Assembly (NCBI GenBank): GCA_943788895.1
Contig: CALSRZ010000004.1
Coordinates: 56,454-120,453 of the forward strand
Direction of reading: 5' to 3'
Length of the DNA stretch: 64,000 nt
Source: an uncultured Pseudomonadales bacterium
Lineage (GTDB): Bacteria; Pseudomonadota; Gammaproteobacteria; Pseudomonadales; Porticoccaceae
Shown here: positions 47,263 to 54,350 of the stretch, in pieces
Position numbering within the stretch: the first letter of the stretch is position 1
How the letters are laid out: every line of letters starts with the position of its first letter
Position numbers and translations under genes: made by a program
Notes under the pieces: generated by a model
What the model was told of the DNA's origin: nothing
Databases searched by the model: none
The model's input: only the letters and a program-made list of their open reading frames with translations

Positions 47263-47685
47263 ATGCAGATATTTAAATCAGAACAAACCTCAGCAGAAAA
47301 AACAGCCAGTCTGTTGATACTACTAATGGTGCTGTTGCAGGCCTTCTAAGCGCTCTATGCCTATATCAGTCCCCAGGCATTTTCTGACCTGAGGGGAACC
47401 GAACTCTTTCTAGCAGCTGATACTGACTGGGTGCAAATCTACGCCTCAAGAACCGCCTTTGTCGCCCTAATAGTCGGCTATTTACTTTATACCCGTAACT
47501 TCAACGCGCTAGCCTATGCCTCTCTGGCTGGCACTGTTATGCCTATTACCGATGCTTTTTTGGCCTACAGAGCTGCCGCGGCAGATATTGTTGTGTTCAA
47601 GCATATAGCCACGGTTATCTATCTATTGGTTGCCTATTACATCCTTACTCGCGCCGCCGATGGTTCAGTCGTAGATTCAGAATAA
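47263..47685 (+). pseudogene. Membrane protein (DUF4267-like, tentative) with an in-frame TAA at codon 29
   Basis: GAGG RBS, ATG 47263, continuous 141-codon frame broken only by TAA at 47347-47349; hydrophobic helices on both sides of the stop. Confidence 0.7.
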
Positions 47686-47751
47686 TAGACCGAGTAAAAA
47701 GCTAGTAGCGGGTTTGTGCTTGCCAGCAGTTCTATTACTGAGGGGTTTCAC

Positions 47752-47785
47752 TTTATAACTTGCGAAAATGCCAACTCTGGATTAA
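47752..47785 (+). repeat. 34-bp direct repeat, copy 2
   Basis: TTTATAACTTGCGAAAATGCCAACTCTGGATTAA. Confidence 0.9.
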
Positions 47786-47889
47786 ATCTTAATACAGAAG
47801 ATATGCATAAATACCGGTATTTAGCTTATATACGCAGAGTTAAAAATTACTGAGCCCCAGTATTTATAGTCGCCAGGGAAGCTGCAGTG

Positions 47890-48480
47890 ATGACAAGCAC
47901 GAAAGATAAAACCAATAGAAAAAAGCCCACCCCAGTGCTTCAGGCCTTTGAAAAGCACCAGGCAGCACTGCGGCGTTTTATCTCGAGGTTTGTGCAGCGC
48001 AATCAGGATATAGATGATGTTGCACAGGAGGCGTTTATGCGCGCCTACCGTGCCGAAAAAACCAAGCCTATCGAACAGCCTAAATCCTTTCTCTTTCGCA
48101 TTGCTCACAATGTCGCCATCACAGAATTGACCAAAAAGACCCATCAAATAATCGACTATATGGCGGACATCGACGAGTCGGGAGTTGTATGGGTAGATGT
48201 CTCGGCAGAAGAGCAGGTAACTGCCGAACAGCAGATCGGTATTTACTGCGAAGCAGTGGCGCAGTTACCCACCCAGTGTCGGCGGGTATTTTTAATGCGT
48301 AAAGTGCATGGTATGTCCCATAGAGAGATAGCGGAACAGTTGGGAATTGCCATAAGTACCGTAGAGAAACATATGTCCAAAGGCGTTCGCGCTTGCGCAA
48401 ACTATATGGATCAGCATACCGCCGTTAATGCTAATGTCGCGGATAGCACAAATGAAACAGCAGGGCAGAGCAATGGATAA
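47890..48480 (+). CDS. ECF sigma factor, FecI-like
   Basis: DIDDVAQEAFMRAY, FLFRIAHN, LPTQCRRVFLMRKVHGMSHREIAEQLGIAISTVEKH. Confidence 0.93.
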   Translation: MTSTKDKTNRKKPTPVLQAFEKHQAALRRFISRFVQRNQDIDDVAQEAFMRAYRAEKTKPIEQPKSFLFRIAHNVAITELTKKTHQIIDYMADIDESGVVWVDVSAEEQVTAEQQIGIYCEAVAQLPTQCRRVFLMRKVHGMSHREIAEQLGIAISTVEKHMSKGVRACANYMDQHTAVNANVADSTNETAGQSNG

Positions 48481-49513
48481 AATCCACCCATTTACAGCAC
48501 AGACTGAAATCGAAGAGCAGGCCGCCGACTGGTTGGTGCGTCTCGACGGCGATCAGCCGCCAACAGAACAGGAAATGGCTGAGCTTAAACAATGGATAAA
48601 TCGCAGCCCCGTTCATCGCGAACAGTTGCGTCGTCTTACCCAGTTTTGGCATCGCGCCAATATTCTTACCGAGCTGTCATTTCCGCTTGCCGATAGTCAG
48701 CGTCCCCAAGGCTTATGGGATAGATTAAAGCAGCAGTATACCCAGAGCTGGTCAGCACCAGTCTTGGCCGGCGCCGCTATGTTGTTAAGCTTGGCTGTCG
48801 GGTTATTGCTGCTGTACCCCTCATCCTCAGGTGTCTCTGGCAACGGTATCTATGAAACTCGCATCGGTGAGCAAAACACCATTACGCTTGTTGATGGCTC
48901 AGTTATTCAGCTCAACACCAACAGCCAATTGCAGGTGGACTACATAGATAACCAGCGCAATGTGATGCTGATTGCCGGAGAAGCCCATTTTGAAGTGGCC
49001 AAAGATAAGCGCCGTCCATTTAGCGTGCAGGCCGGAGAGGGCAGTGTAAGGGCAGTGGGTACCGCTTTTTCCGTCAGGCTTAATCAGCAGGCACTAAAAG
49101 TGATAGTTACCGAGGGTAAGGTGGCGCTTGAAGAGAGTAGTCAGTCAATTGAAAAGACTCCGCGAGGCTTTTTACATCAGGGGCAGGCAGTAGAGTTTAG
49201 CCCTCTATCTGAGGCTAATATCGATGACCAGATTCAAGAACTAAATAAGCAGGATATTGAAAAACAGTTAGCCTGGCGCAACGGCCTATTATTATTTGAT
49301 GGTGAAACCTTGCGTCAGGTGATTGATGAAGTTAATCGCTATACCAAGCTTAATATAGAAATTATTGATTCTGAAGTCGCCGATATCAGCATAGGAGGGC
49401 AATTTAGAGTGGGTGAAATCGATGCCATGCTAACTGTGCTTGAGCATAGTTTTAACGTCGATGTGCGTCGCCCAGACGTTGACACAGTGCAGCTTGCCAT
49501 ACAGCAACTCTAA
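48473..49513 (+). CDS. FecR-family anti-sigma factor / signal transducer
   Basis: EEQAADWLVRL, one TM, TRIGEQNTITLVDGSVIQLNTNS, GEAHFEV, AVGTAFSVR, AWRNGLLLF. Confidence 0.93.
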   Translation: MDKIHPFTAQTEIEEQAADWLVRLDGDQPPTEQEMAELKQWINRSPVHREQLRRLTQFWHRANILTELSFPLADSQRPQGLWDRLKQQYTQSWSAPVLAGAAMLLSLAVGLLLLYPSSSGVSGNGIYETRIGEQNTITLVDGSVIQLNTNSQLQVDYIDNQRNVMLIAGEAHFEVAKDKRRPFSVQAGEGSVRAVGTAFSVRLNQQALKVIVTEGKVALEESSQSIEKTPRGFLHQGQAVEFSPLSEANIDDQIQELNKQDIEKQLAWRNGLLLFDGETLRQVIDEVNRYTKLNIEIIDSEVADISIGGQFRVGEIDAMLTVLEHSFNVDVRRPDVDTVQLAIQQL

Positions 49514-49817
49514 TCAATTGATCTAGCGCCAAGTTAGCGCGAAAACCTTCCGGGTTTTTACTAGCTGTCTTTGCTAGTTATACCAGTCTCTCCACAGGTA
49601 CGCGGATAATTATCTACACTTACCATTAAACAAAGAGAGATCAAGTTAAGTGCAGAAATTGCCGCTCTATTCTATTTGTAGCCTGCACGACGGAGCCGCC
49701 ATTATAAAAACTAAAAACCTCAATAAATTTACCCAGTTAATAGCGGGTTGCTTAAGCCTATCAGTTATATCTCGTACAAGGCCGCATAAGTGGTGTTGTC
49801 ATGGATATAAATTCAGC

Positions 49818-50411
49818 CATGTTAAAGCTGTGCGCGATTTAGCTGGACCCGATATTGCCCTTAAAATAGACAGTAATCAGGGCTGGGATTACCCAACCGC
49901 TGTTGCCAATATCCAGACTATGGCGCCGCTTAATCTTGAATATTCCGAACAGCCTTTAGCCGCTTGGGACTATGAAAATATAAGGCGCCTAAGAGATAAA
50001 GTCTCGCTGCCAATCTGTGCTGATGAGAGTGTGTTTGATGAAAAAGATGCGCTTAAACTCGTTAATCTTGGTGCAGTTGATTACCTTAATATAAAGCTTG
50101 GCAAATCTGCAGGTATTCACACCGCTTTAAAAATCAATGCCATCGCTGAAGCCGCTGGTTGCAAATGTATGGTTGGTTGTTTTGGTGAATCACGCTTAGC
50201 CTTAAGTGCCTCTGCTCACTTGGCAATGGCCCGTCCCAATATCCATTTTATTGATTTAGATTCAGCTTATTCCTTTAAACAAGATCCTGTGGAGGGTGGT
50301 ATGACCTATGACGATAAGGTGGGCGGATTGATTCACCTGTCCGATAAGCCAGGTCTTGGTGCATCCTTTAAACAAGAATTCTTATCTGATGGCTCAAAAA
50401 TAGTAATCTAG
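49818..50411 (+). pseudogene. C-terminal (barrel) fragment of an L-Ala-D/L-Glu epimerase / MLE-family enolase-superfamily gene
   Basis: KIDSNQGW, EQPL, ICADESV, NIKLGKSAG, MVGC, DLDS present; N-terminal capping domain and the K-x-K motif absent. Confidence 0.8.
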
Positions 50412-50460
50412 TTAGCTAAATATTTGCTCAATATTTCCTGAAAAAATAATCCCAATTGGG

Positions 50461-50805
50461 GTGGGGGTATCTACTACTAAATTGTCTTACCTATATAGGA
50501 GACGATTTTGTCTCGACTTAAAAAAATATTTAAGTAAGGTCGATGCCCAAAAAGGACTCAGGAAAAACGTGGAAGTAAAAGAGAAAGTAAAAAGGAAGTT
50601 GTCGTCACAGGTTGCTTCACTAGGCGAGGCAGATGATTGTGGCCAGTTCGAACACCATTCAGAAACTGATCAATCAAAGTTTCAACCTTTGTCTCACACA
50701 GTAATAAAAAGTGAAACTTTTCCTGATGATCTAGCTGAGTCTGCTGAGACAAAAAATACCATAGAGGGCAGTGAAGAATATTGTTTTAAGCGCGGATATA
50801 ATTAG
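50461..50805 (+). CDS. Hypothetical protein or gene remnant (AT-rich)
   Basis: ORF only; AGGAG precedes an out-of-frame TTG, suggesting a homopolymer slip; no motif recognised. Confidence 0.3.
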   Translation: MGVSTTKLSYLYRRRFCLDLKKYLSKVDAQKGLRKNVEVKEKVKRKLSSQVASLGEADDCGQFEHHSETDQSKFQPLSHTVIKSETFPDDLAESAETKNTIEGSEEYCFKRGYN

Positions 50806-50985
50806 CAGTCTGGGTGACAAGGCAAGACTACATTTATCATCTTTTTCCATACCTTAAGGTCATTCAGCTACTTGGCAAAATTCTCTATCAGTGGCATCTG
50901 AATTTCCTTCAAAATCTCAGGGTACTTTTCTGTTAGGTGTGTGCACTTTGCGCTTGTCTATAGTCGAGTGACCAAGGCAGTAAAG

Positions 50986-51714
50986 TTACCAGCAGTTAGG
51001 TTTGTATAGAACGGTTGAGCTGTTTGCTATTTGAATTGATTCCGGAAGCTGTGAGTTAATAAATGCAGGCTCTCTGGCTGTGCGAGTAAATGTTGAATAG
51101 CGCCTGAGTTTTGTTACAGGCCTCTGTTTCCAAGTTGTTATAAGGCCAGTACATTTACCCAGCTCATCTTTTACAACCCGCAGCGATTCCGCAAGATCAC
51201 TATCATTGCTAACTATTACGCAACAGTCATATAGATTCTTCCAGCCATCATTGACCACATGAACTGCTAGGTTTACATCGGATCCCTTTTCTTCAGTGCT
51301 TATAGTGTGCACTTTAGGACCTGGATCAATTTTCCATTGCGGGACTTCGTTAAAAATTTTCTGATTCCATTTGCAAATAGTTTTGCCACGTCCTGTTATT
51401 TCAGAGTTGTCTAGCTGGCCTCCAGGTGTCACAAGAGGGGAAACTTTGCTGTGCACTGAAAAATGGCCGCGAATTATTTCTATTTCTGGAATATGTGCTT
51501 GAAGAGCTTTTAGATAAATTTTTTGGCGATTAGCTGCGCCACTGCTATCTGCTCGTTCTGAGATATTTGCAGTGAAGTATTTGATTTTTACTATTGAATT
51601 TTTTTGGCTTAAGACTGTTTTACAGAAAGCCATAATGTCTAGCCATTTGGCAGAGGAGTATTTGAGGGCATTGTAGTAAAGGTTAAAGCCATCAATATAA
51701 ACTATCGTTTTCAT
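50986..51714 (-). CDS. NYN-domain (LabA/DUF88-like PIN fold) putative RNase
   Basis: IVYIDGFNLYY, IKYFTA, EEKGSDVNLAVHVVNDG, IVSNDSDL (acidic active-site residues intact); AAGGA RBS favours ATG 51714 over 51720. Confidence 0.9.
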   Translation of the reverse strand: MKTIVYIDGFNLYYNALKYSSAKWLDIMAFCKTVLSQKNSIVKIKYFTANISERADSSGAANRQKIYLKALQAHIPEIEIIRGHFSVHSKVSPLVTPGGQLDNSEITGRGKTICKWNQKIFNEVPQWKIDPGPKVHTISTEEKGSDVNLAVHVVNDGWKNLYDCCVIVSNDSDLAESLRVVKDELGKCTGLITTWKQRPVTKLRRYSTFTRTAREPAFINSQLPESIQIANSSTVLYKPNCW

Positions 51715-51734
51715 TTTCATTCATCCTTGAATGC

Positions 51735-51786
51735 AAAAGGCCACCGAAGTGGCCCTGCGGTAATATGACGAAACATATTACGTGGT
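51735..51786 (-). ncRNA. Candidate ~52-nt structured leader/small RNA ending in an intrinsic terminator, upstream of the NYN gene
   Basis: Predicted RNA ACCAC-GUAAUAUG-UUUCGU-CAUAUUAC-CGC-AGGGCCAC-UUCG-GUGGCCUU-UU: an 8-bp hairpin plus a cUUCGg hairpin with U-tail. Confidence 0.5.
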
Positions 51787-51792
51787 AGGTGC

Positions 51793-51833
51793 AATATAGA
51801 TAATTGAAAGCAAACTTACAAGTTTTACTTGTA
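51793..51833 (-). promoter_or_regulatory. Putative sigma70 promoter with a palindromic operator over the -35
   Basis: - strand TTGTAA (51821-51816), 17-nt spacer, TATATT (51798-51793); TACAAGT-N3-ACTTGTA at 51817-51833. Confidence 0.65.
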
Positions 51834-51888
51834 GACAATTTCACAGATATTATTGCTTAGCATGGCCTCCATTAGATATTTCCATTCT

Positions 51889-52916: not shown

Positions 52917-54350
52917 ATGGCAGGAAAAACACTTTACGACAAGCTCTGGGATAGCCACCTTGTTAAGCAGAATAGCGATGGTTCGTCGCTGATTTATATT
53001 GATCGGCATGTCTTGCATGAGGTGACTTCACCGCAGGCGTTTGAAGGTCTGCGTCTGGCGGATCGCAAGCCTTGGCGTCTGGATACCAATATCGCTACCC
53101 CTGATCACAATATCTCCACGGATAAAACCGAGCGCGATGCTGGTGTTGCCGGTATGGCGGATGAGGTGTCGCGTATTCAGGTGCAGACCCTGGATGATAA
53201 CTGCGATCTCTATGGGATTAAGGAATATAAGATCAATGAGATGGGGCAGGGTATTGTTCATGTGATGGGTCCTGAACTGGGCGCGACTATGCCGGGTATG
53301 ACCGTGGTCTGTGGTGATTCCCATACGGCGACTCATGGTGCGCTGGCCTGTCTGGCTCATGGTATTGGTACCTCTGAGGTTGAGCATGTGCTGGCGACTC
53401 AGTGTCTGGTGGCCAAGAAGATGAAGAATATGCGTGTGACTGTGGATGGCACAGTGGGCGCTGGTGTGACCCCTAAAGATGTGGTGTTGGCGATTATTGG
53501 CAAGATTGGTACTGCCGGTGGTAATGAGCACGCGATTGAGTTTGCCGGTTCGGTTTTTCGCGATATGTCGATTGAGGGTCGTATGACGGTCTGCAATATG
53601 GCGATTGAGGCGGGTGCCCGTGTCGGTATGGTGGCTGTTGACCAGAAGACTATTGATTACTGTGAAGGTCGTCAGTTTGTGCCTAAGGGTGATATGTGGG
53701 TTCAGGCGGTTGAATACTGGAATGGTTTAGTCAGTGACGAGGATGCGGTCTTTGATACTGAGGTTGTTCTGCATGCGGATGAGATTGCGCCGCAGGTGAC
53801 CTGGGGAACGTCTCCCTGAGATGGTGGCACCGGTTACGGCTTCTGTTCCAACCTTGGAAGAGCAGTCGAATGATGAGCAGCGCAAAGGTCTTGAGCGCGC
53901 TCTGGAATATATGGGTCTTGAAGGCGGTCAGGCGATTGAGTCTATTGCTGTGGATCGTGTGTTTATTGGTTCCTGTACTAATTCCCGTATTGAAGATATG
54001 CGTGCGGCGGCGGCTGTGGCCAAGGGTCGTCAGGTGGCCAGTTCAGTTAAGCAGGTATTAATTGTGCCCGGTTCGCAGATGGTTAAGGCGCAGGCGGAAG
54101 CGGAAGGGTTGGATAAGGTGTTTATTGCGCGGGAATGGATTGGCGTGAGCCGGGCTGTTCTATGTGTCTGGCGATGAATGCGGATAAGTTGGGGGCGGGG
54201 GAGCACTGTGCTTCTACCTCGAACCGTAACTTTGAAGGTCGTCAGGGCAATGGCGGTCGTACCCATTTGATGAGTCCGGCGATGGCTGCGGCTGCGGCGG
54301 TGGCTGGTCATATTGTTGATGTACGTACATTTGATGGAGGGGTAGTTTAA
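52917..54350 (+). CDS. leuC: 3-isopropylmalate dehydratase large subunit, two frameshifts (near 53.82 and 54.14 kb)
   Basis: [55 protein letters not shown]. Confidence 0.96.

Follow-up and report, generated by a model that had tools for sequence, protein, structure and literature searches.

A conserved two-hairpin RNA linked to NYN-domain genes in many bacterial phyla, a candidate RNA partner of a predicted ribonuclease

We examined a 64,000-nucleotide stretch of DNA from an uncultured Pseudomonadales bacterium (contig CALSRZ010000004.1; the whole stretch is called the window), in which a gene for an NYN-domain protein lies on the minus strand behind a promoter and a predicted two-hairpin RNA. 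The initial annotation had read this locus as a candidate RNA-antitoxin or defence module, and every part that it listed (palindrome, promoter, transcription start, two hairpins, ribosome-binding site and NYN gene) is present on the minus strand. An operator-like palindrome, TACAAGT-AAA-ACTTGTA (51817–51833, read directly), overlaps the −35 box of a sigma-70-type promoter (51793–51821) found by a promoter scan. This promoter consists of TTGTAA (51821–51816), a 17-nt spacer and TATATT (51798–51793), from which a transcription start is predicted near 51786. Promoter calls throughout are consensus matches only; this one scored 9/12 and was the sole promoter-like site on the minus strand in the 2 kb scanned. 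In close relatives the −35 box is likewise covered by a palindrome whose arms differ (TACAAC-CAATT-GTTGTA in locus L027, AAACG-TTG-CGTTT in L022), and the promoters of homologues lie at the same position, often with a perfect TTGACA.

The first structure in the predicted transcript is hairpin 1 (51760–51781, minus strand), an 8-bp stem of GUAAUAUG and CAUAUUAC closed by the loop UUUCGU. One unpaired C separates it from hairpin 2 (51733–51758), where GGCCAC-UUCG-GUGGCC carries an outer GCAG/UUUUGC extension to give a terminator-like fold. The 76-nt leader has a predicted folding energy of −25.4 kcal/mol (z = −3.7), and none of 200 shuffled sequences was as stable. A terminator with a U-tail had been described here; the hairpin stands, but its stem is followed by only 4 U, then GCAUUC, and a terminator scan makes no call there. 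The element as a whole matches a covariance model of the NYN-associated RNA motif, R1, at 51725–51789 with 57.7 bits (E = 1e-17; R1 E-values are rough owing to a shortened calibration). This is the one R1 copy in the window and, by covariance model search, the sole strong copy in the whole genome. A Shine–Dalgarno sequence, AAGGA (51724–51728, minus strand), was read within the loop of a third, weak hairpin (CAUUCA/UGAAUG), an arrangement common only to the window and its 70%-identical relative L027. The NYN gene itself (50986–51720, minus strand) is an intact open reading frame of 244 aa from 51720. The start codon is more likely at 51714 (MKTIVYIDGFN), because the protein would then begin like the rest of the family (MRTxVYxDGFN), with 9 nt between AAGGA and the start codon.

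The encoded protein matches Pfam PF01936 with 37.1 bits (cut-off 24.2) and the PADLOC HEC-09 model with E = 8e-37. Its AlphaFold model has a predicted local distance difference test score (pLDDT) of 92, and the top structural matches are 2qip (LabA-like) and the MARF1 NYN domains 6fdl and 5yaa, each with a probability of 1.00. Residues E143, E144, D148, D173 and D175 are invariant in a 21-sequence alignment, D10 is conserved in at least 90% of the sequences, and all six are present in the window protein. From these profiles and the structure model, we class the protein as NYN/PIN-like, of the HEC-09 family, and as a predicted ribonuclease; the intact NYN/PIN-fold protein with acidic motifs of the initial annotation is thus borne out by Pfam, PADLOC, the structure model and residue conservation. 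The family is large: at least 7,800 homologues were scored, and members occur on 455 sequenced plasmids, many of them from Klebsiella and E. coli. Some of these plasmid records (e.g. OW969600.1 and NZ_KX893538.1) are labelled ‘6-hydroxy-3-succinoylpyridine 3-monooxygenase HspA/NicB’, which is probably a propagated misannotation. No protein-coding neighbour was conserved across 91 NYN loci. A small XRE-like gene upstream of NYN in two close relatives was considered as a protein partner and set aside as weak and not general.

The upstream regions of NYN homologues were compared, as the initial annotation had proposed, and a conserved hairpin pair was found: the R1 motif lies directly upstream of NYN in 95 of 98 homologous loci, from more than 10 phyla, with scores of 31–82 bits. 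The proteins of motif-bearing loci diverge to 34–47% identity. The three closest homologues (64, 60 and 54% identity) have the same promoter–hairpin–hairpin order as the window, with compensatory substitutions in hairpin 1. The same architecture was seen in 22 metagenome loci and in 80 genome loci from Gamma-, Alpha-, Beta- and Deltaproteobacteria, Bacteroidota, Chloroflexota, Planctomycetota, Acidobacteriota, Nitrospinota, Gemmatimonadota and others.

The consensus fold derived from an alignment of 30 sequences shows compensatory changes in 14 of its 16 pairs. When an 18-pair structure was scored on this 30-sequence seed, 94.6% of cells could pair (72.9% after shuffling) and 118 cells carried double changes (31.6 after shuffling); none of 500 shuffles came up to the observed values. 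With the partners offset by one to three columns, pairing fell to 38–54%. These figures hold on 105 distinct sequences, in an alignment (A4) that was fitted to R1, so that its counts lean towards the structure. Compensatory changes occur at all 8 pairs of hairpin 1 across relatives, while covarying pairs in hairpin 2 number 7 of 10 in the 30-sequence seed and 9 of 10 in the 105 distinct sequences. A UUCG core is found in the hairpin-1 loop of about 80% of 97 family members. Cells with G.U pairs greatly exceed those with A.C mismatches (105 versus 18); the selected structure must therefore reside in the RNA (or a single strand) of the NYN sense strand. This bias, together with the conserved promoter, disfavours a DNA-level element such as an attachment or integron-type site.

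No family in Rfam 15, including the abiF and DUF3800 motifs, matched the leader of the window or of 14 relatives at E-values up to 1–10; the only match nearby was a weak one to isrB, with 19 bits against a threshold of 35. Our literature search found no paper describing the motif or linking NYN genes to an RNA partner. Judged by the pattern of covariation, the two-hairpin leader is a selected structured RNA that is uncatalogued in Rfam 15. A DUF3800-VI RNA (RF02915, 41.5 bits against a threshold of 35) does occur directly downstream of NYN in one locus (L044, 1170–1222), with no DUF3800 gene evident after it. It was rejected as a known identity of the motif, being downstream of NYN and of a different structure.

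The element lies about 130 nt downstream of the stop codon of a LysR gene on the same strand, and the initial annotation had raised the concern that the hairpin might be no more than the terminator of the LysR transcript, here beside a chance promoter-like sequence. We rejected this explanation as hardly credible on three grounds. First, the sister genome G023 encodes a 100% identical LysR protein but in alignment lacks window positions 47388–51842, and with them the entire element. Second, the DNA after LysR differs among other genomes of the genus: aroC is 9 nt away in G006, and other genes follow in G016 (one that we take to be a zinc peptidase) and in G008. Third, the element accompanies NYN into about a hundred unrelated contexts. 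The NYN gene itself was absent from all 24 genomes of the same genus that were searched. In G023, the right-hand break falls 9 nt upstream of the palindrome and the left break cuts a small open reading frame that continues in the window; because of this cut frame, G023 probably carries a deletion. The segment 47388–51842, between aroC and the LysR gene, is thus a variable one, as the initial annotation had suggested in placing the locus in a variable island. In either case, promoter, hairpins and NYN gene make up a single unit within the segment.

In 73 of 89 relatives (82%), U makes up at least 5 of the 8 bases that follow hairpin 2. The start codon comes after the stem at a median distance of 18 nt, and there is often no clear ribosome-binding site. 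For most of the family, these features point to a strong promoter feeding a textbook terminator that abuts the NYN gene. The clade of the window (with L027, L022, L024 and L018) has kept both hairpins, but of the 8 nt that follow the extended stem only 2–3 are U. Since the U tract is weak, termination is probably weak in this clade and the RNA probably stays on the NYN mRNA. That this clade has lost the U tract but not the hairpins is an argument for selection on the structure beyond a role in termination.

Much of this could be accommodated by a purely cis-acting leader, in which the element would serve in attenuation and/or as an autoregulatory 5′ untranslated region cleaved or bound by the nuclease, with no antitoxin role in trans. 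Promoter and start codon directly flank the element in about 95% of loci, a canonical terminator lies close before the start codon in most relatives, and in the window the RNA is probably attached to the mRNA. There is also precedent, as the E. coli rne and rnc genes, encoding RNase E and RNase III, are autoregulated through their own 5′ leaders. These resemble the present element in being conserved, hairpin-containing leaders directly before a ribonuclease gene; they differ in that they belong to chromosomal housekeeping genes and are not terminators, and we know of no case in which they occur as separate or repeated genes. We consider such a leader the main rival explanation, although an unlikely one in the light of the other arrangements in which the RNA was found.

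The RNA and NYN occur together in three layouts. In the first, which comprises most loci including the window, the RNA is a leader upstream of NYN. The second is found on 4.6-kb ColE1-type plasmids of E. coli and Salmonella, where NYN is the only cargo. Upstream of the gene there is a promoter, then four tandem hairpin-1 units and a strong terminator. Each unit consists of CCUGUGGC-GUG-CCGCAGG plus a spacer, with periods of 33 and 29. One related plasmid has five hairpin-1 units, and the 3.4-kb plasmid pKMi006_5 has two full motifs in tandem. The absence of tandem repeats noted in the initial annotation therefore holds for the window, with its single copy, but not for the family. In the third layout, seen in the Mycobacterium prophage prophiGD43A-1 and on a Paenarthrobacter plasmid, the motif lies just downstream of NYN in convergent orientation with its own promoter (54 and 50 bits).

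A purely cis-acting leader accounts for the first layout and cannot explain the second or third. The convergent copies of the two Actinomycetota, with their own promoters, cannot be leaders, and attenuation has no need of tandem arrays made of hairpin 1 only and varying in copy number. Moreover, no conserved antiterminator pairing was seen when variants were read by eye; the two hairpins have similar arms in the proteobacterial consensus, which was considered as such a pairing and dismissed because the similarity is absent from other clades by eye. Distant NYN genes on plasmids of Klebsiella, Xanthomonas and Thiothrix also have hairpins and a strong terminator against the start codon. Two of the Klebsiella plasmid genes (L188 and L189, about 31% identical to the family query) have a different upstream element containing GCGAUUAAGUU, of which L188 has two copies and L189 a single one, located in a hairpin loop; a strong terminator follows in both.

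The specificity of the link to NYN was assessed by a blind scan of 401 Pseudomonadota genomes that were chosen without use of NYN. R1 scores were bimodal, with true copies in 9 genomes. Of these 9 copies, 5 precede an intact NYN gene and 1 a decayed NYN gene, while the remaining 3 front a 60-aa open reading frame; a 112-aa open reading frame with a DUF433 gene behind it; and an XRE regulator, after which comes another frame that we presume to be ParD-like. These three copies precede genes of toxin–antitoxin type. A further point that a cis-acting leader would accommodate is that, in genomes lacking NYN, the element stands before other mobile genes that could be harmful. Extra copies in NYN-bearing genomes mostly precede NYN paralogues or remnants. 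In the 401 genomes, the motif was never found after a housekeeping or ordinary highly expressed gene. The matches below 35 bits that were examined lie at gene ends and look like ordinary terminators, with the single exception of L143 (26.9 bits, before an intact NYN gene). The motif is absent from the distant NYN genes of genome G039.

Some of the additional copies have neighbours of their own. Two Nitrospinota-related genomes have a second motif copy ahead of a 65–71-aa gene and a Fic/Doc gene (L068, 2186–3277; L070, 5017–5619), and a 3.4-kb E. coli plasmid with NYN (L186, 1295–1495) also encodes what its annotation calls a VbhA-family (Fic) antitoxin; NYN and Fic modules thus co-occur repeatedly. 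In L056 (661–2199), about 250 nt separate a copy from a tyrosine (phage-type) integrase gene downstream of it; a second copy with NYN comes next, and a tRNA gene is found about 770 nt beyond NYN.

Viral contigs scanned with a pattern yielded 21 loci, and R1 confirmed 15 of them at 51–77 bits. One of the confirmed copies has an intact NYN gene, one has an NYN remnant and 13 have no NYN gene. Six viral contigs have the motif 30 nt behind the major head protein gene, with no obvious promoter of its own, and other motif-bearing viral contigs hold head scaffold, adaptor or major head genes. Phage PhiTE carries a pseudo-ToxI, an RNA decoy against ToxIN (PMC3475682), and by this analogy the orphan copies would fit phage-made RNA decoys. 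Such orphans are also not what a purely cis-acting leader predicts. Two other searches gave no further phage copies: a strict pattern for window-type RNA had one match in viral contigs, inside a coding region without hairpins and attributed to chance, and blastn of the consensus against sequenced phages returned only short partial matches to the second hairpin that were not significant (E = 0.03–0.4).

The position of the phage copies raises the further explanation that the motif is a portable terminator or insulator with an accessory hairpin, shielding toxic genes from outside transcription and ending phage capsid mRNAs. Hairpin 2 and its U tract do form a textbook terminator in 82% of loci, and the phage copies stand close behind major head protein genes, lacking an obvious promoter. 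An insulator, however, needs no promoter, and a strong one is conserved directly upstream of the element. Hairpin 1 and the linker are conserved beyond the needs of termination, ordinary highly expressed genes are never followed by the motif in the 401 genomes, and the clade of the window has lost the U tract yet kept both hairpins. A portable terminator explains neither the conserved promoter nor the plasmid arrays and convergent genes, and we regard it as very improbable.

The plasmid arrays, convergent RNA genes and orphan phage copies instead support the idea of an RNA partner, with the phage copies counted as supportive rather than decisive. That the motif is a dedicated RNA partner of the NYN family is the best-supported statement. 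A partner could nevertheless act in other ways than by restraint. The motif could be an independent small RNA that serves NYN as a guide, cofactor or activator, or that regulates other transcripts. In favour of this, the RNA comes with a promoter and terminator of its own, stays beside NYN in several layouts and has a conserved UUCG-type core in its hairpin-1 loop. By eye, however, the loop of hairpin 1 has no complementarity to the start of the NYN mRNA, the stems vary freely and hence hold no conserved guide sequence, and a terminator that depresses NYN output fits restraint better than activation. An independent role of this kind is improbable in our view.

Starting from the conserved structure, the linkage to NYN in three layouts, the terminator features and the mobility of the module, we propose that the RNA restrains the NYN nuclease by termination in cis and by binding, the two forming a toxin–antitoxin or defence pair on mobile DNA that works in the manner of type III systems. 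We hold this reading tentatively, as quite possible. The strong promoter would make a structured RNA of about 55–60 nt, composed of a short 5′ tail and the two hairpins, the first with its UUCG-type loop. Hairpin 2 is, in most relatives, a canonical intrinsic terminator ending 8–20 nt before the start codon, so that most transcripts would end as small RNA and only read-through would encode the ribonuclease. In the clade of the window, with its decayed U tract, the RNA would remain the 5′ end of the NYN mRNA unless processed. The RNA would then restrain the nuclease in two ways, by limiting its synthesis in cis and by binding the protein. We infer here that the RNA is transcribed and binds the protein, that NYN is toxic, and that the module has a role in phage defence or plasmid maintenance; the neutralisation of a toxic RNase and the abortive infection suggested in the initial annotation would belong to the same scheme.

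Several observations weigh against RNA-mediated restraint of NYN. Of the copies picked independently of NYN (those in the 9 genomes from the blind scan, together with the additional copies in genomes that have NYN), about a quarter to a third stand before other genes, and no NYN gene was found in two of the three genomes whose motif copy fronts another gene. The extra copies also front one Fic/Doc module and one integrase. An excess of free small RNA is less likely in the window than in most relatives, because the RNA is single-copy and its U tract is poor. The phage copies behind capsid genes could serve simply as terminators. In addition, in the one published test of this protein family, HEC-09 was cloned together with its native upstream region and conferred no protection from the coliphages tried (10.1101/2024.01.29.577857).

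The proposed pair can be compared with three kinds of known system beyond the ribonuclease leaders. The type III toxin–antitoxin systems ToxIN, CptIN and TenpIN (PMC3401426, PMC5086642) have a promoter, a structured non-coding RNA, a terminator and an endoribonuclease gene in the same order as the NYN loci. Further likenesses are the tandem arrays of 29–33-nt units with varying copy number in some NYN relatives, the presence of NYN modules on plasmids and prophages, and the orphan RNA copies in phages, comparable to the pseudo-ToxI of PhiTE (PMC3475682). In contrast, the protein here has an NYN/PIN-like metal-dependent fold and not that of ToxN, AbiQ, CptN or TenpN; most NYN loci, including the window, have a single two-hairpin unit and no repeat array; and hairpin 2 of the NYN RNA is itself the terminator. 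Because the toxin fold differs and the window is without repeats, we place the module outside type III proper, and on this comparison the resemblance would be one of way of working rather than of family membership.

The second is the abiF RNA motif, or RCd22, a non-repeat structured RNA upstream of AbiF in a Clostridioides difficile prophage, which lowers expression of the toxin and neutralises AbiF in trans as well as in cis; it too was first known only as a conserved RNA motif (10.1101/2025.04.15.648962). The NYN RNA is likewise a non-repeat structured RNA upstream of a protein that is predicted here to target RNA. The protein families are unrelated, AbiF being an Abi_2, HEPN-like protein, and so are the RNA structures, the NYN leader matching no Rfam family. 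The third is HEC-09 itself, a candidate defence gene that was discovered inside Hma defence systems and has been taken up in PADLOC (10.1101/2024.01.29.577857). This is the same protein family, with a single NYN gene, a MARF1-like fold and conserved aspartates. The difference lies in its treatment: the source presents the gene as a single-protein candidate, and its passages on ‘HEC-09’ or ‘NYN’ mention no RNA partner (10.1101/2024.01.29.577857).

A broader proposal is possible, if doubtful: that these loci represent a new class of RNA–protein toxin–antitoxin or defence modules spread across many phyla. Such modules would combine a PIN-like metal-dependent toxin with a minimal hairpin RNA antitoxin that is its own terminator and is encoded as a leader, an array or a convergent gene, with decoys in the late (capsid) operons of phages. 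The NYN family is very common and figures among candidate defence genes; should the RNA be its partner, a gene that has been tested and annotated as a single-protein system is really part of a two-component one. Such a partnership would add a fourth, structurally unrelated toxin family to the RNA-antitoxin systems and a second natural case of phage-encoded RNA decoys, and would provide a compact RNA-controlled RNase for tool building. Even on a modest reading, the motif is a widespread and well-supported structured RNA that is missing from Rfam.

Other features were noted around the module in the window. Beside the LysR gene, leuC (52917–54350) appears split into three overlapping frames of 300, 118 and 71 aa, which could be due to frameshifts, a pseudogene or assembly indels. 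The small open reading frame at the left break (47265–47685), membrane-spanning by eye, has a TAA at about 47349 where G023 has TAC, and is cut in G023 by the 4.45-kb deletion. Within the variable segment, 47887–50411 contains a truncated enolase-superfamily gene with only the C-terminal domain (Pfam MR_MLE_C), together with what we take to be an extracytoplasmic function (ECF) sigma factor gene and a FecR-like anti-sigma gene. The gene content of this region suggests a decaying islet.

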